From Clostridia bacterium (GTDB lineage: Bacteria; Bacillota; Clostridia; UMGS1810), in NCBI GenBank assembly GCA_045546535.1, contig JAZQDA010000173.1, positions 20,116-44,115 of the forward strand: a stretch of 24,000 nucleotides of DNA. The letters are read 5' to 3'. The number at the start of each line of letters is the position of its first letter. Positions within the stretch are counted from its first letter, which is position 1. The notes under the pieces are model-generated. The model saw nothing but the letters and a program-made list of their open reading frames with translations. It was not told the DNA's origin and searched no databases. A program made the position numbers and the translations under genes. Positions 8,323 to 19,067 of this stretch are shown here, one piece after another.

Positions 8323-10287
8323 ATGGCAGATTATAAAGCAGGCAATTTGAATTTAACCATTCAAACAATATCGAATGATACTATCAAGTCGCTTGATGCC
8401 GTTATTGAACGCCTTTCTTTAATTGATAAGGGTTTGGGTGGAATTAAGGGTAGTTCTTATATCCGAAAATCCGCTAAAACCCCTAAATCCAACGGAGGTG
8501 CATTTGGATTTGCCAAACTTGGCGTAAACCTTTATATGATGCGCCGTATGGGTCGCTTTATGGCTAACTTGGTGCAAGCAGGGTCGGACTACAACGAAAC
8601 CCTTAACTTGTGGCAAGTCGCTATGAGAATCAACCTTGATGTTGCCTACCAATTCGTGAACAAGATGCAAAAGGCGTATGGTATCAGCACGAAAACGCTG
8701 ATGAACGCCCAAGCGATTTTCAAGAATATGGTTGGAAACTTGGGTAATGTTTCCGATGCAACGGCGTATGCACTTTCCGAGGCATTAGTCCAAATGTCCG
8801 TGGACTTTTCTTCGCTTTACAATGTTAAACTGAACGAAGCGTTTAACAAAATGCAAGCAATGCTTGCCCGTCAGGTTCGCCCGATACGCAGCGTGAGCGG
8901 TTATGACATCACCGAAAACACGATTTATGAGTTGTACCAAGCACTCGGCGGCACAAAGACTATGCGCCAACTGAACAACACCGAAAAACAACTTTTGTCT
9001 ATTTATGCGGTGTTCAAGCAAATGGGCGCAAGTGGTGCGTTGGGCGATATGAGCAAAACGCTCAACCAATTCGCAAACCAAAGCCGTATGATGACCGAGT
9101 ATTGGGCTGAACTCAAAACTTGGTCGGGCTTGTTGCTCAAAGACTTGATAGACCAAAGCGGTGCGCTTATTTATATTAACGCTCTGCTTATCACGACTAC
9201 CGAGATTGTAAAGGCAATCGCAAAGGCAAGAGGAGTCGGTGACGAGAACTACCTCACGGGCTTGTTTGAAACTACCGAAGCCACGAATGATGCCGTTGAC
9301 GAGTTGCAGGGCAAACTCCTTGACTTTGACAAGTTCCGTTCCCTTGAAGGTGCAACTGCTTCTCCCCTCGCCATTGACGAAAAACTCTTGCAAGCGATTT
9401 CGGGCTATTCAAGCAATATAGACCAAGCGGAGAACGAAGCGCAGAAACTTGCGGAAACTTGGCTAACCAATCTTGGATATGTTTATGACGCAGAAAGTGG
9501 CACTTGGAAATTAGGGGAAAATATAAGCGAAATACTAAAACTTGTAATAGAAATTGGTAAATTCTTATCACCAATTTTTGATACAGTATGGGAAATAGTT
9601 GGTTTAGTTTTACCTTTAATAACTCATATTATTGAAAAATTAAACCCCATAATGCTTCCAATATCTAAAATATTAAAGAATGTTTTTGCAATAGTAGAAG
9701 CAATAGTAAGGTTTTTAACTCCTATACTTGATGCCGTCATAGATTTGTTAATGATTTTAACTCCTATTTTGGAAGTGGCAAATGGAATTGTTTGGTTGGT
9801 ATCTGTTGTTTTAATAGGTGCGATAGAAACAATAAATTGGCTTTTAGTTCCTGTCCTCGCAACTTTTGAAGCAATTTCAAAAGTTGTACAAACAATAGCG
9901 GAATTAGTAAGAGCGTTGTTCCAATGGGATTGGGGTTCTCTTGGGAAAAATCTTTCTAATATTTGGGGTAATTGGCGAACAAGCGACTTTGCAAGCACAA
10001 AATACGAAATGCCAAGTTTTGCGGTTGGCGCAAGCGACATTGATAGCGGCACAGTATTCCGCGCAGGAGAGTTCGAAAAGACCGAGGCGGTTTACACGGG
10101 TATCAACGGAAAGACGAATGTTGCGAATGTGCGCCAAATGGAGCAAGCGTTCTACAATGCGCTTTCTCGCCACTCGCGCGAGGGCAACGGCACGATTGTG
10201 GTGCAGACATACCTTGACGGCGAAAAGGTCTATGAGAATACCACCGCAAAGGCGAAGTCGCGCGGTAATGTTTGGGCGAAAGTGTGA
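8323..10287 (+). CDS. Tail tape measure protein
   Basis: 654 aa and helical. The central hydrophobic region has repeated LSPIFDTV / LTPILDAV / LTPILEVA motifs. It follows the G/GT pair. Confidence 0.85.
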   Translation: MADYKAGNLNLTIQTISNDTIKSLDAVIERLSLIDKGLGGIKGSSYIRKSAKTPKSNGGAFGFAKLGVNLYMMRRMGRFMANLVQAGSDYNETLNLWQVAMRINLDVAYQFVNKMQKAYGISTKTLMNAQAIFKNMVGNLGNVSDATAYALSEALVQMSVDFSSLYNVKLNEAFNKMQAMLARQVRPIRSVSGYDITENTIYELYQALGGTKTMRQLNNTEKQLLSIYAVFKQMGASGALGDMSKTLNQFANQSRMMTEYWAELKTWSGLLLKDLIDQSGALIYINALLITTTEIVKAIAKARGVGDENYLTGLFETTEATNDAVDELQGKLLDFDKFRSLEGATASPLAIDEKLLQAISGYSSNIDQAENEAQKLAETWLTNLGYVYDAESGTWKLGENISEILKLVIEIGKFLSPIFDTVWEIVGLVLPLITHIIEKLNPIMLPISKILKNVFAIVEAIVRFLTPILDAVIDLLMILTPILEVANGIVWLVSVVLIGAIETINWLLVPVLATFEAISKVVQTIAELVRALFQWDWGSLGKNLSNIWGNWRTSDFASTKYEMPSFAVGASDIDSGTVFRAGEFEKTEAVYTGINGKTNVANVRQMEQAFYNALSRHSREGNGTIVVQTYLDGEKVYENTTAKAKSRGNVWAKV

Positions 10288-10295
10288 GGTAAATA

Positions 10296-11660
10296 ATGGC
10301 AACAGTAAACTCATACAAAGATAAATACATCGGAGTTGACCGACCTTCCGTATATGACATTTTGCAGAAGGTCGGCACTACGGAATACCGAGAGGGTGCG
10401 ATTAAGGAATACAAAGCCGTTGATATTGCAGAGGTAAAGATTGACGGCAATCGTTTCCGCAACTATGGCGTGTATAGTTTCATTTTGGAAAAGACCTTTG
10501 TGAAGCAACCCAAAAGAAGCGCAGATGGTAGTCTTGGAAACCTTAACGCCTACGCGACTTTCCTCACTCCGCACTTGATTATGGACTTTTCGGTGATGTC
10601 TATTGACGACTACCGCAAAATTATGCTTTTGCACTACGGCGCAAATGAGTTCACGGTTGAGTGCTATGACCCGATTTACAACCGCAAAATCAAAGTCAAA
10701 ATGTACTTTGCCACCGAGGAAATGGCGAAGCTATACACCATCGCCCAAAACCGCCTTTTGCCCGACGGGCAATGGGAAGAATGGGTTGACCTTGTTGGCG
10801 TGACCGAGTACAAGGTTGAACTTATCGGCACGAACAACGACCTTGACCTTGTAAGTGTGCGATATGTATATTCTGCAAATGATGAAAATGGAAATCCGAT
10901 ATTTAACGCCCCCAACGGCTCTCCTATGCCCGACCAATACGAAGAAGATATTTACTTAGGCGAGGAAATTGTTGTTGGTTCTAATTCGACTTTCCAAAAT
11001 ACTCCCCCAAATGCCGCTTATCAATTCTCCCATTGGACTATGCTTTCGCAGAACGAAAACGGAGAATATGAAGAACTGGGCAAAAGAACAAATGGTCTTG
11101 TAATAACTATAAATGCGCCAACAATTTTCCGCGCAGAATGGGAGCCAACAGGGACTCACAATCTTTCGTTCAACTATGGGATTTCCGATGTTGACTATAC
11201 TGTGGATAGCGCAACGGGCATAAGGACGGACATCCTAAGCAGGGAAGTTCAAGAAGGTCAAAGTATTGGCATTTTGCCGAAATTGACCGCAGAGCCGTTT
11301 GTAACAGGCGCAGATAATAAAAAATACTACCCTTACACAAATGGCGGTTGGTACAAGCACCCTGTTAAACAAGCGGATATGCAAGTTTTCAGCAACGAGT
11401 TGTATTGGATGGATAGAGATACCATTATCTACGCGCTTTACGACAAGAAACCATTTTCGGTGACTTATGTGACAGACGCGCCGAACACCGATATCCCAAC
11501 TCAAACTCTTTATTACGGCGACCAAGTTTATCTTCCTACGCTTGCGCGTGACGGATATAGTTTTCAAGGTTGGTACATTGATGAAGATAAGAAAACGGCG
11601 TTTAGCGGAAATATGCCCCCCTATTCCATTACTCTTTACGCAAGGTGGGTTAAGTCGTGA
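10296..11660 (+). CDS. Distal tail protein (Dit)-position protein with three C-terminal Listeria-Bacteroides (Flg_new-type) repeats
   Basis: First gene after the tape measure. The C-terminal repeats end in the signatures YQFSHW...IFRAEW, GGWY...IIYALY and GYSFQGWY...ITLYARW. Confidence 0.6.
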   Translation: MATVNSYKDKYIGVDRPSVYDILQKVGTTEYREGAIKEYKAVDIAEVKIDGNRFRNYGVYSFILEKTFVKQPKRSADGSLGNLNAYATFLTPHLIMDFSVMSIDDYRKIMLLHYGANEFTVECYDPIYNRKIKVKMYFATEEMAKLYTIAQNRLLPDGQWEEWVDLVGVTEYKVELIGTNNDLDLVSVRYVYSANDENGNPIFNAPNGSPMPDQYEEDIYLGEEIVVGSNSTFQNTPPNAAYQFSHWTMLSQNENGEYEELGKRTNGLVITINAPTIFRAEWEPTGTHNLSFNYGISDVDYTVDSATGIRTDILSREVQEGQSIGILPKLTAEPFVTGADNKKYYPYTNGGWYKHPVKQADMQVFSNELYWMDRDTIIYALYDKKPFSVTYVTDAPNTDIPTQTLYYGDQVYLPTLARDGYSFQGWYIDEDKKTAFSGNMPPYSITLYARWVKS

Positions 11661-14815: not shown

Positions 14816-15127
14816 ATGTCAAATGTAATTCAGCAGGGCGCAACACCGACACATAAATTTCATACTCCTTATCCAAAGGATTTTGTGGAAAGTGCAATCA
14901 TCACCTATGAGCAAAACGACAAGATTGTTTTGGAGAAAACAGGCGATGAATTGATTGTTGAGGATAATTCAATTTCTGCGGAACTCACGCAAGAGGAAAC
15001 TCTTTCTTTTGACGATGATTGCGATGTAAAAATCCAGTTAAAAGTGAAATCCCAAAACGGCAGTGTTATTCCCTCAAAAATCATTTATGCCACCGTGGAC
15101 GAAGTTCTTAACAAAGAGGTAATGTGA
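14816..15127 (+). CDS. Hypothetical small beta-rich protein in fibre cluster
   Basis: 103 aa with SD AGGAGA. Its stop overlaps the next start (TGATG). Confidence 0.55.
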   Translation: MSNVIQQGATPTHKFHTPYPKDFVESAIITYEQNDKIVLEKTGDELIVEDNSISAELTQEETLSFDDDCDVKIQLKVKSQNGSVIPSKIIYATVDEVLNKEVM

Positions 15128-15927
15128 TGGCACAATTTGTGGCGGTGTTTGAGCCTATAAACAACACCTTTGAAACCGAGTTTGAGGGCTTCACGCCCGT
15201 TTCGGAAGGCGGCTACGATAAAGGATATGCCAATGGATTTTCCGAGGGCGAGAAAGAAGGGTTTGACAAGGGAAAATCCGAGGGTTTAGAGCAGGGCAAA
15301 AAATTAGAATATGATGTTTTTTGGGATAACGCGCAAAATTATGGAAATAGAGAAAGCCATTCTTATGCTTTCGCTGGCGCAGGGTGGAATGACAATAACT
15401 TTAAGCCAAAATACAATATGCGTGTAACAAATGCTCAATATATGTTCCGTTATACCGCGATTGAGCATTTGGCAGAAATCCTTGCAAGTCAAAAAGTTAT
15501 CATTGATTTTTCTGCGATAACCAACACGGACAGAATGTTTGCGGACGGTGCGCTCGTTCACATTGGCGAGTGTGATTTCACAAACACAAAAAATGTTGCC
15601 AGTACATTTGCAAACGCAAGGTCTTTACAAACTATTGATAAAATAATCGTGAACGAAAGCAATGTTTTTGACACTACTTTTACAAACTGTGCCGCTTTAG
15701 ATAAGGTTGCATTTGATGGTGTTATTGGCAAATCAATAAATTTTCAATGGTCGCCGTTGTCAAAGAAAAGTTTTGAAAATATTATTCCACATTTGTCCGA
15801 AAATGTCACGGGGCAAACCGCTACTTTCAAAAAATCTGCTGTTATAGCGGCATTTGGAAGCACAACATCTGCGGAATGGTTGGCATTGGTTGGTAGCAAA
15901 TCAAACTGGACTATATCGCTTGTATAA
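15127..15927 (+). CDS. Receptor-binding protein candidate with degenerate BspA-type leucine-rich-repeat-like units
   Basis: The N-terminus has the repeat GYDKGYANGFSEGEKEGFDKGKSEGLEQG, common in fibre shafts. Units then recur: MFRYTAIEHL, MFADGALVHI, TFANARSLQTI, TFTNCAALDKV. The start could be GTG at 15124 or ATG at 15127. Confidence 0.5.
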   Translation: MAQFVAVFEPINNTFETEFEGFTPVSEGGYDKGYANGFSEGEKEGFDKGKSEGLEQGKKLEYDVFWDNAQNYGNRESHSYAFAGAGWNDNNFKPKYNMRVTNAQYMFRYTAIEHLAEILASQKVIIDFSAITNTDRMFADGALVHIGECDFTNTKNVASTFANARSLQTIDKIIVNESNVFDTTFTNCAALDKVAFDGVIGKSINFQWSPLSKKSFENIIPHLSENVTGQTATFKKSAVIAAFGSTTSAEWLALVGSKSNWTISLV

Positions 15928-17343: not shown

Positions 17344-17796
17344 ATGAACGCGATTTTTGAAAATCAAGTTTCAGTTTATTGCATTATGGCAGTTTTGATT
17401 TTCGCACTTACGCAAGGTCTTAAATGGGCTTTTGTAAAGCCTTTCACGAACAAAATCAAGAACAAAAAGGTGAGAAAAGCGGTCAACACGACCATTTATT
17501 TCATTCCCTACGCCCTCGGCATTGGTTTTGAGTTTGTTTATTCCGTGATGATTATGCACGGCGAGTTCAACGCGGTTATGGGTATTATCCACGGCACTTC
17601 TGGCATTGCTTGCTACGGTGTGTTTGAGCGTTTTTACTCATTTATCACTGGCAAAAGTTCTAACATTGAAAACCCCTACGAAACAACCGAAACTGGTCGC
17701 GCTGTTCAAGAGCTTATGAAAAGCGTTTCCGAGGACGGCAAGTTTGACGAAAAAGACCACCCTGCGGTCACGGCGTTTCTTCAAAAAGTTAAGTAA
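17344..17796 (+). CDS. Holin candidate (three TM helices plus charged C-terminal tail)
   Basis: The ATG follows GAGGGGG. TM helices are VSVYCIMAVLIFALTQGLKWAF, IYFIPYALGIGFEFVYSVMIM and AVMGIIHGTSGIACYGVF, followed by a hydrophilic tail rich in E/D/K. Confidence 0.55.
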   Translation: MNAIFENQVSVYCIMAVLIFALTQGLKWAFVKPFTNKIKNKKVRKAVNTTIYFIPYALGIGFEFVYSVMIMHGEFNAVMGIIHGTSGIACYGVFERFYSFITGKSSNIENPYETTETGRAVQELMKSVSEDGKFDEKDHPAVTAFLQKVK

Positions 17797-18386
17797 TGAA
17801 GCCGATTAAAAAAGCAATAATTATATGTTGGGTTATGCTCGTTGCGTGTTTCGCTATCAAACTTTTCGGTGGAAACTAGTTTGATGCCGTTTGCACCAAC
17901 GAGCATTTTGTAAATATATGCAGAATAGTTGATAATAATTGGTTTTTATATTATCCCATCGGACTATCTTTATATGTTTTGTCTACTATTTTCGTAGTTT
18001 TATCAGTATCAAACTACAAAAGATTTAGTAAAAAAGGGTTTTTGACACTTATTTGTGTTTTAATTTTATTGTGGTCAACACAATTTATTTCATCTACAAC
18101 AAAATTTTTCGCAGACACTTTGTTTTTGATTTTTTCTCCGTTGGTAATACATTTAATACAAGAGAAAAATATTAAAAGTGTTATAAAAAGAAACTGGTAT
18201 AAAGGAATATTTTGTTTTTTAATAACATTTATATTCCAATTTATATCATTAGTAACAAAAAATGTTGGCATAAAAATAACAGACGATAGCACACTTGTAA
18301 CTGCAATATTGCTAATTGATTATTATATTATGATAATTCTATACTATCTGTATATGAAAAAATCAAAGGAGGGGAAAAATGGGTAA
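17796..18386 (+). pseudogene. Polytopic membrane protein ORF interrupted by one in-frame TAG (17877-17879); pseudogene or amber read-through gene
   Basis: The ATG at 17796 overlaps the holin stop (TAATG). The same frame stays open to 18386 apart from the TAG. The 135-aa table ORF has only a TTG start without an SD, and no ATG until near its end. Confidence 0.5.
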
Positions 18387-18528
18387 CTTTGGATTGCTTT
18401 TCTTTAGCGAGAGAATCGCACAACTCAAAGCGTTCCGCGCCACCCTTACCGACCCTGCACAGATTGCAGATGTTGATAGGGAAATCGCGGCTCTCGAAGC
18501 CAAGCAAGCAGAAAAGCAGGGCGAGTAA
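18379..18528 (+). CDS. Small peptide gene (49 aa), hydrophobic N-terminus and charged C-terminus
   Basis: Strong SD AAAGGAGGGG at 18366-18375 with ATG at 18379. The stop overlaps the next ATG (TAATG). Sequence: MGNFGLLFFSERIAQLKAFRATLTDPAQIADVDREIAALEAKQAEKQGE. Confidence 0.55.
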   Translation: MGNFGLLFFSERIAQLKAFRATLTDPAQIADVDREIAALEAKQAEKQGE

Positions 18529-19067
18529 TGAGTTGGCGAGTTAAGTTTCGGCTCTTTCAAGTGGCGACTTACGGGATAGTGTTTGCGACTATTGCGCTGA
18601 TGGCGGTTGTCACGGGAAAATACATTGAAACAATCGGTTTGTTTGTCAGTTTTGTTTCTTTGCGATACGCGTTTGAAAAGACTTGGCACTCAAAGTCGTT
18701 TTGGCGGTGCATTTTCATAAGTTGCGTTGTGTTTGTGGTGGCGATAGCATTTGTGCCGAATAAGGGCGTGAGCCTTTTGTCTTGCGTTGCTTTCGGCTTG
18801 TGCATTGACTATGTTGCTTACAAATACAAGGACTACGAAGATATACGCCTTGAATTATACAAGCCGTTCAATGTTGACACTTGCACAAGAGCCGAACTCT
18901 TAACTCGTTGCAGACAAGTCGGTTTATCCGAGGAAAACACGGAACTCGCGGTTGAGTTCTTTATTAAGAAAACCAAACAAAGCGAAATCGCAGACTGCCT
19001 TTGCATTAACGAGAAATCTGTGCAAATCCGAAAGAAGCGATTGCGACAAAAACTTAATAAAAATTGA
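18528..19067 (+). CDS. Membrane-anchored HTH protein: N-terminal 4-TM domain with AgrB-like H-x2-S-x3-C-x3-S motif fused to a sigma-70 region-4/LuxR-type HTH
   Basis: There are four hydrophobic helices in residues 1-100, including LRYAFEKTWHSKSFWRCIFIS. The C-terminus LSEENTELAVEFFIKKTKQSEIADCLCINEKSVQIRKKRLRQKL fits the region 4.2 HTH pattern. Confidence 0.65.
   Translation: MSWRVKFRLFQVATYGIVFATIALMAVVTGKYIETIGLFVSFVSLRYAFEKTWHSKSFWRCIFISCVVFVVAIAFVPNKGVSLLSCVAFGLCIDYVAYKYKDYEDIRLELYKPFNVDTCTRAELLTRCRQVGLSEENTELAVEFFIKKTKQSEIADCLCINEKSVQIRKKRLRQKLNKN

Follow-up and report, generated by a model that had tools for sequence, protein, structure and literature searches.

A lone in-frame amber codon in a phage membrane-protein gene is probably a recent nonsense mutation read under the standard bacterial code

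A gene of a tailed phage carries a single in-frame TAG codon close to its 5' end, followed by a long and apparently healthy reading frame. The question raised by this locus is whether the amber codon is still decoded in some way or simply ends translation. The gene lies in a stretch of 24,000 nucleotides of contig JAZQDA010000173.1 (assembly GCA_045546535.1, Clostridia bacterium), hereafter called the window. A preliminary description of the window, made from its letters, had reported one frame with one TAG and an ATG overlapping the stop codon of the upstream gene (TAATG). Both statements are correct: the overlap is present in the sequence and the translation of the frame reads GGN*FDAV around the amber codon, at the coordinates given in Table 1. 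The same description had offered several explanations, namely a recent TGG-to-TAG nonsense mutation, programmed or suppressor-dependent readthrough, and a host or phage that avoids or reassigns TAG. Our analysis indicates that a phage membrane-protein gene, read with the standard bacterial code and intact in every relative, has probably undergone an ordinary, recent nonsense mutation through a single TGG-to-TAG change.

The window was placed using protein matches to PHROG families. Large terminase, portal, major head protein, tape measure and tail protein follow one another in this order on the plus strand, which identifies the window as the late operon of a tailed phage. The window has no close cultured relative: it gave no DNA match, and the identity of its portal protein to any of 50,697 phage records does not exceed 27%; the interrupted gene itself has neither a DNA nor a protein match among these records. 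Gut and rumen metagenomes are the source of the related contigs, three of which belong to genome bins assigned to Clostridia, Acutalibacteraceae and Gastranaerophilales.

Table 1. Features of the window around the interrupted gene (positions are those of the window)
Feature	Position	Strand	Basis or remark
Upstream membrane-protein gene, 150 aa, putative holin	17344..17796	+	Orthologues in L002, L016, L017, L018
Interrupted membrane-protein gene	17796..18386	+	ATG 17796 to TAA 18384-18386, 196 codons, lone internal stop
27 codons still translatable (MKPIKKAIIICWVMLVACFAIKLFGGN), most of first membrane helix	17796..17876	+	
Clade-conserved hairpin, 27 predicted pairs, codons 13-38, contains the amber codon	17834..17907	+	
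Amber codon at codon 28, replaces a nearly invariant Trp (TGG)	17877..17879	+	DNA alignment
168 codons past the TAG, open, with a purifying-selection signature and without a start of their own	17880..18383	+	
AT-rich, fast-diverging gene body (approximate limits)	17915..18365	+	GC, GC3, identity
Downstream 49-aa gene, module member two (AAGGAGGGGAAAAATG)	18379..18528	+	Own GGAGG Shine-Dalgarno
179-aa AgrB-like membrane domain with C-terminal helix-turn-helix, module member three	18528..19067	+	Pfam AgrB

Once a residue is put in place of the stop, the 196-residue translation aligns collinearly and over its full length with 65 proteins of about 196 aa. The best homologue is 88% identical across 100% of the query, and all 65 align through the position of the stop gap-free. 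These full-length matches indicate that the interrupted frame is one gene and not two. A wider search with a profile, run against 1.84 billion representatives, extended the family to 464 representative clusters (E ≤ 0.001), mostly of 180-260 aa. The most conserved parts of the family are its first 40 residues (CWxMLVACFAIKLFGGNWFExVCTNEHF) and a C-terminal segment (LIDYYIMIxLYYLY), and amino-acid identity is 14-55% in the middle of the protein against 65-89% at the ends. The AlphaFold2 model of the homologue that is 88% identical (P0001) is all-helical (pLDDT of 81), with a first helix spanning residues 3-34, and the family protein probably possesses six membrane helices. No Pfam or PHROG family was found for the interrupted gene, and none of 33 family members gave a Pfam hit at E < 0.1. 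Searches of the PDB likewise returned no sequence match for the gene and no fold match (E > 3).

The residue replaced by the stop is nearly invariant: 90% or more of the aligned members have W at position 28. We examined codon 28 by tblastn over 35 related loci. This codon is TGG in 8/8 close syntenic relatives, the position is occupied by W, F, Y, V, I or L in more distant members, and no stop was found there in any of the 35 loci. In the DNA alignment, the window reads AAC TAG TTT, its nearest relative (L001) reads AAT TGG TTT and another relative (L002) reads AAC TGG TTT. The amber codon thus differs from TGG by one G-to-A transition, at position 17878. The preliminary description had proposed to look for intact homologues with a sense codon at this site. 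Such homologues, with TGG, were found in all eight close relatives, in line with the first of its explanations. The TAG allele, searched as a degenerate DNA pattern, had no match in IMG/VR viral contigs or in JGI metagenome contigs. We also looked for a recurrent stop at the same site in other members and found none; one locus (L020) carries an in-frame TGA, but it is unrelated and much further along the gene.

Under the nonsense reading, a G-to-A transition would have converted the conserved Trp-28 codon of the membrane-protein gene to TAG. Translation from the ATG would then end after 27 residues under the standard bacterial code, which is the code of this phage group, and the remaining 168 codons, with the most conserved motif, would stay unmade, save for the trace readthrough common to any stop. 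The outcome would be a young loss-of-function allele within an otherwise intact phage late region. We infer that the truncated product is non-functional, since conservation within the family is highest over the first 40 residues, and that the loss of the gene is tolerated.

The age of the lesion can be gauged from the codons that follow it. Relative to the nearest relative, the 168 codons past the stop present a dS of 0.72 and a dN of 0.08 (dN/dS of 0.11), and the values are similar in the 27 codons that precede the stop. No second stop or frameshift was found past the TAG, though about 6% of the possible substitutions would create a stop. The low dN/dS and the lack of a second lesion suggest that the mutation arose late compared with the divergence from the nearest relative. 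Because nearly all of the divergence accumulated under selection, the lesion is either very recent, or an error, or tolerated. The undamaged downstream frame is as compatible with continued decoding of the codon as with a very young lesion.

This pattern also bears on the possibility that the TAG stems from a wrong base call or a misassembly, or from a minority allele caught in the consensus, the real phage having TGG and an intact gene. A lone substitution at an otherwise perfectly conserved codon is what such an error would look like, as are the intact selection signature in the rest of the gene and the intactness of all other genes. The site is further located inside a strong inverted repeat, a context in which short-read platforms tend to make sequence-specific errors. 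However, consensus substitution errors are rare at normal assembly depth. In addition, the nearby derived GAG-to-GAT change is conservative and is seen in other members, which argues that the local sequence is not generally unreliable. We consider an error unlikely, and the less likely explanation when compared with a genuine nonsense allele.

For the other stop codons of the window, the preliminary description had counted 25 TAA, 14 TGA and no TAG. Our tally agrees with this count (23 TAA, 14 TGA and 0 TAG). It comprises 37 plus-strand ORFs of 45 aa or more, picked greedily so as not to overlap, which cover 93% of the window. In the close syntenic relatives, TAG ends 7 of 163 genes (4.3%): 3/22 in L017, 2/34 in L018, 2/28 in L014 and 0/79 in L002, L016, L013 and L019 combined. 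At this base rate, the probability of observing 0 TAG stops among 37 is about 0.2. Since TAG is rare in the close relatives, the lack of TAG stops in the window is unremarkable. The TAG stops of the relatives are true ends of genes: past each of them the frame stays open for no more than 41 codons, and in several cases the next gene's start overlaps the TAG. In L014, TAG terminates the orthologue of the interrupted gene, within a sequence (ATGGGTAG) that also holds the start of the next gene. Finally, TAG is the rarest of the 64 trinucleotides of the window when all frames are considered (120 occurrences), with a count of 0.27 of the expectation from base composition and 0.50 of the first-order Markov expectation. 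Its rarity in all frames indicates that the scarcity of TAG is compositional and represents a general depletion, not an avoidance specific to terminators. The apparent significance of combining no TAG stops with one in-frame TAG vanishes once the use of TAG in the relatives is measured.

We then considered whether TAG could have been reassigned. When TAG was reread as a sense codon, no other real gene of the window gained an in-frame TAG. A second candidate, at position 15845, was rejected because its frame overlaps the 3' end of the gene at 15124-15927. Except for the interrupted gene, the window genes with an orthologue in L002, L016, L017 or L018 are single, stop-free frames. With just one in-frame TAG across a 24-kb late operon, reassignment of the codon is unsupported. 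A lineage-wide reassignment was rejected on another ground: the syntenic relatives end seven genes in TAG, including the orthologue of the interrupted gene. The proposal that the host or the phage avoids or reassigns TAG is not supported by these comparisons, as the window holds a single in-frame TAG and its relatives terminate with this codon. Decoding of UAG as pyrrolysine was rejected as well, given that the homologues carry TGG and that there is no tRNA in the window. The same holds for translational bypassing of the T4 gene 60 type, which needs a non-coding gap between matched take-off and landing codons, because the alignment with the homologues runs ungapped through the stop.

A more restricted form of decoding would involve a suppressor tRNA with a CUA anticodon, supplied by the phage genome outside the window or by the host. 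Synthesis of the full 196-aa protein would then depend on the presence of the suppressor, and the locus would represent an incipient recoding. The path to recoding has been described as the disuse of a stop codon, followed by the gain of a suppressor tRNA and then by the appearance of in-frame stops, which arise first in structural and lysis genes (bioRxiv 10.1101/2021.08.26.457843). Several features of the window would suit an early step of this path: it has no TAG terminators, TAG use is only 4% in the close relatives, the gene belongs to the region where recoded stops first appear (bioRxiv 10.1101/2021.08.26.457843) and the 168 downstream codons are undamaged. Against this, about 7,400 late-gene codons contain a single in-frame TAG, and recoded phages contain many. 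No tRNA was detected in the window (ARAGORN; Rfam at gathering thresholds), and no CUA-anticodon tRNA was detected in the 35 related loci, whose tRNAs are limited to those for Asn, Ser and Gln, all with normal anticodons. The relatives terminate genes with TAG, the orthologue of the interrupted gene among them, and the depletion of TAG in all frames points to composition and not to a stop-specific avoidance. The ancestral residue is moreover a Trp, whereas the TAG recoding validated in gut phages by metaproteomics yields Gln (PMC9523058). Together, we regard suppression as very unlikely. If it were true, the locus would offer a rare snapshot of the first, one-codon step of a change of code in a phage, in which the first gene of a membrane regulatory module located by putative lysis genes would be expressed with the suppressor only. 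The preliminary description had reasoned that intact TGG homologues, genes ending normally in TAG and the lack of a suppressor tRNA would together indicate a simple pseudogene. The TGG homologues were found, TAG stops were found in the relatives, and the lack of a suppressor tRNA extends over the window and the 35 related loci.

The amber codon is also embedded in a predicted RNA hairpin. The segment from 17780 to 17930 folds with a minimum free energy of -40.4 kcal/mol (z = -3.1), and none of 200 shuffled sequences was as stable (0/200). The fold contains two perfect inverted repeats (17835-17844 with 17897-17906, and 17856-17863 with 17878-17885). Across nine close relatives, 95% of the cells of the alignment are paired, compared to 31-44% when the partners are slid by one to three columns. 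Compensatory changes are observed at three of the pairs; in L017 and L014, for instance, A-U replaces G-C in the outer stem. The identity at synonymous sites reaches 0.68-0.79 in codons 11-40 and is about 0.4-0.55 elsewhere. The hairpin is kept in L003 (22/27 pairs) and is weaker in the distant members, where it is mostly at the level of the controls (16-19/27 pairs), which indicates that it is specific to the clade. A search of Rfam returned no known RNA family for it.

A structure of this kind raises the possibility of programmed or leaky readthrough, in which the 27-aa peptide would be the main product and a few ribosomes would go on to make the 196-aa protein. The location of the stop within a conserved hairpin would be compatible with such a mechanism, and so would the open and conserved frame that follows. 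But the TAG is found in no relative, and its allele is absent from two large sequence collections. Judging from the coordinates, the 5' arms of the hairpin would be behind or inside the ribosome when the TAG is reached, so that the hairpin would not act as a downstream stimulator, and no separate structure is predicted just 3' of the TAG. The base that follows the TAG is a T, and a T following a stop codon constitutes a strong termination context in E. coli. Because the amber stop is unique to the window sequence, readthrough is unsupported, and we find it highly improbable. The earlier proposal of a programmed or suppressor-dependent readthrough runs against the same observation, since the stop is not conserved in any relative.

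The downstream part of the gene could alternatively be made on its own, the gene being split and not dead. The first canonical in-frame start past the TAG is the TTG at 17979, which opens an ORF of 135 aa, and translation could begin there or by reinitiation. This TTG is preceded by no GGAGG-like Shine-Dalgarno sequence that we could find. The preliminary description had referred to a downstream part of 135 aa without such a sequence: this is accurate for the ORF that begins at the TTG, but the stretch that follows the TAG measures 168 codons. The product would be short of one and a half helices at its N-terminus (all of the first and half of the second), and of the family's best-conserved motif (KLFGGNWFxxxCxNEHF). 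Short members of the family could have provided a precedent. Of the two that we examined, one (P0209) is an artefact of start calling, its upstream frame being open, and was rejected as a truncated product, and the other (P0183) sits at the end of a contig of 674 bp. We give a split gene hardly any credence.

The inverted repeat might instead be informative about the origin of the mutation. The amber A17878 pairs with U17863, where the relatives present a G.U pair. The two arms of the window, ATCAAACT and AGTTTGAT, are perfectly complementary, whereas those of the relatives contain a G.U pair and a mismatch. The TAG change and the neighboring GAG-to-GAT change (17878 and 17885) make AGTTTGAT the exact reverse complement of ATCAAACT. 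It is possible, on the slender basis of these two positions, that the amber mutation arose by a quasipalindrome template switch. The perfected repeat is suggestive of how the stop arose, and it gives no evidence that the stop has a function.

The preliminary description had also drawn attention to an AT-rich island whose edge falls near the TAG. The low GC-content is real: it is 24-29% over approximately 17850-18450, against 43% for the entire window. From codon 41 to the end, the gene of the window presents a GC-content of 0.24 and a GC3 of 0.22, and the GC3 of the same codons ranges from 0.22 to 0.45 in the close relatives; the neighboring genes have GC3 values of 0.49-0.59. The link with the TAG is coincidental, since the relatives with TGG share the AT-rich body. 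The TAG is located inside the conserved 5' segment, about 40 nt before the variable AT-rich body. A recent insertion of the island that would have created the stop was rejected on these same two grounds. Members of the family were also found in phages of 27-30% GC. These observations fit a cassette-like gene body, lying between the conserved 5' segment and the conserved 3' end and exchanged by recombination.

The interrupted gene is the first member of a conserved group of three genes. The upstream 150-aa gene, a putative holin, has no Pfam or PHROG match. Downstream, the 49-aa gene has a GGAGG seven bases ahead of its ATG and, with this signal of its own, should still be translated despite the amber codon. 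The 179-aa protein encoded by the third gene matches Pfam AgrB (PF04647) with 32.4 bits (cut-off of 23), over approximately positions 24-111 of the 185 of the profile. AgrB is also above the cut-off in the 4/4 distant orthologues tested (L003, L008, L029 and L015; 26.5-45.7 bits). The protein contains the motif WHSKSFWRC, in which we take the spacing of His and Cys to resemble the catalytic pair of AgrB. Its C-terminal helix-turn-helix resembles region 4 of sigma-70, based on a weak hit in a fused homologue (P0211). The order of the module is a six-helix gene, then a gene of 45-53 aa, then a gene of about 180-200 aa, and it recurs in the close relatives as well as in the majority of the distant loci examined (L003, L005, L008, L009, L012 and L015 carry the module; L029 is listed with the larger gene only). 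In most of these distant loci, the ORF of 45-53 aa begins with MG, or with MG shortly past the called start.

Natural fusions connect the first and third members of this module. P0211 (404 aa) joins the six-helix family to the AgrB-like/helix-turn-helix protein (hhalign probability of 88%, E = 3e-6, residues 243-402), and P0202 (413 aa) looks, from its sequence, like a second such fusion, though it has no Pfam hit. The lone meaningful fold match of the P0001 model (Foldseek against BFVD; E = 3.9e-4, TM-score of 0.65) is a viral protein of 429 aa named AgrB, which is probably also a six-helix/AgrB-like fusion. The six-helix family itself shows no detectable similarity to AgrB: hhalign against the AgrB-like neighbor gave a probability of 1.3%. 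The fusions suggest that the six-helix protein acts together with the AgrB-like/helix-turn-helix protein.

For annotation purposes, these results make a routine point: the gene should be marked as nonsense-disrupted, and the standard bacterial code is the one to use for translating the window. The amber codon may matter less than two side findings: a widespread, unannotated membrane module of three genes and the hairpin in the first of them.

Several known systems can be compared to this locus. A superficial resemblance is to the recoded gut phages (code 15, TAG read as Gln; crAss-like phages, Lak phages and the named clades of bioRxiv 10.1101/2021.08.26.457843), a recoding that has metaproteomic validation (PMC9523058). 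As in those phages, the locus derives from a gut or rumen phage and presents an in-frame TAG in the late region, in a window without TAG terminators and in a lineage that is low in TAG use. In contrast, recoded phages have many in-frame TAGs and the window has one; they possess a suppressor tRNA, whereas none was seen in the window and the relatives keep TAG as a stop; and their TAG stands for Gln, whereas the residue replaced here is Trp, the homologues having Trp or other hydrophobic or aromatic residues.

The module recalls the agr-type genes of phages such as the C. difficile phage phiCDHM1 (PMC3901668). It includes an AgrB domain two genes downstream of the interrupted gene, preceded by a small peptide gene that is about the size of AgrD. 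Relative to that system (PMC3901668), the AgrB-like domain of the window makes up the N-terminal half only, with a helix-turn-helix fused to it, the 49-aa peptide lacks cysteine and does not match AgrD, neither AgrC nor AgrA is present, and the six-helix protein has no detectable homology to AgrB or AgrC.

Quasipalindromes are known mutational hotspots through template switching (PMC7202029). The likeness to this process is that two nearby substitutions perfect an inverted repeat of 8 bp. The signature consists here of two positions; once these sites have changed, chance would produce it with a probability of between about 1 in 6 and 1 in 9, and as a counterpoint the Asp at residue 30 is also present in other family members.

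Finally, the locus shares with nonsense pseudogenes a one-base change from a conserved sense codon, orthologues that are intact elsewhere, a stop that is not conserved and a window in which nothing was found to decode TAG. Such pseudogenes usually display relaxed selection or further lesions. The gene of the window displays neither, and it would fit this class only as the bearer of a very recent lesion.

The amber codon of the six-helix membrane-protein gene lies within a hairpin of 27 pairs inside the coding sequence (see the table). Across nine close relatives, 95% of hairpin cells are paired, three compensatory pairs are observed and synonymous-site identity is raised over the region. The hairpin is retained in the related locus L003, is gone from most distant family members and matches no Rfam family. 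The G-to-A transition that created the amber codon replaced a G.U pair with A-U, which improves the hairpin, and in the window the inner arms form a perfect palindrome. Together, the perfect palindrome and the new A-U pair suggest a template switch as a possible origin of the amber mutation.

Features of the interrupted gene and its surroundings (window coordinates)
Feature	Position	Strand	Remark
Upstream gene	17344-17796	+	Called a holin in the preliminary description
Conserved three-gene module	17796-19067	+	
Hairpin, 27 pairs	17834-17907	+	Within codons 13-38 of the interrupted gene
Hairpin outer arms	17835-17844/17897-17906	+	
Hairpin inner arms	17856-17863/17878-17885	+	
Gene body, low GC3, fast-diverging	~17915-18365		Corresponding gene segment in L001, L002, L013, L014 and L016-L019 (close relatives)

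Of the 64 trinucleotides, TAG is the least frequent when all frames of the whole window are counted (120 occurrences, half the Markov-1 expectation). Only 7 of the 200 genes of the close phage clade, window included, end in TAG; in distant low-GC relatives, this codon terminates ~20-30% of genes. The observation of TAG rarity covers the whole window together with L002, L013, L016 and L019. In another family member, L020, the reading frame is interrupted by a TGA (2901-2903; SIV*FVLNF) located in the gene's second half. This locus comes from a 4-kb metagenome contig, and its TGA could reflect either a nonsense lesion of independent origin or a context in which TGA is decoded.

The gene body presents a GC3 of 0.22-0.45, relative to ~0.5 in neighboring genes of the same phages, and diverges at a much higher rate than the genes on either side: between the window and L016, identity is 55% over the gene body and 94% over the 179-aa neighbor. 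The gene body looks like a cassette swapped between conserved ends. Upstream, the gene described as a holin has no match in Pfam or PHROG, and no endolysin was recognized among the genes scanned; the lysis role of this neighborhood is putative.

The three-gene module was also found in L003, L005, L008, L009, L012, L015 and L029, around 9970-11290. It consists of the six-helix membrane protein, a ~48-aa peptide that usually starts with MG, and a ~180-aa protein with an N-terminal AgrB-like membrane domain (motif WHSKSFWRC) and a C-terminal helix-turn-helix. In L007, an IMG/VR contig, the gene for this last protein (10610-11148) is broken into a pair of overlapping ORFs, at 10610-10849 and 10840-11148, which points to a frameshift or a misassembly. 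A natural fusion of the six-helix and AgrB-like/helix-turn-helix proteins is confirmed for P0211 (404 aa); P0202 (413 aa) appears to be a second one. The ~180-aa protein exceeded the Pfam AgrB cut-off in all five cases tested, and the module may constitute a phage regulatory system of an unusual kind, agr-like or tethered to the membrane.
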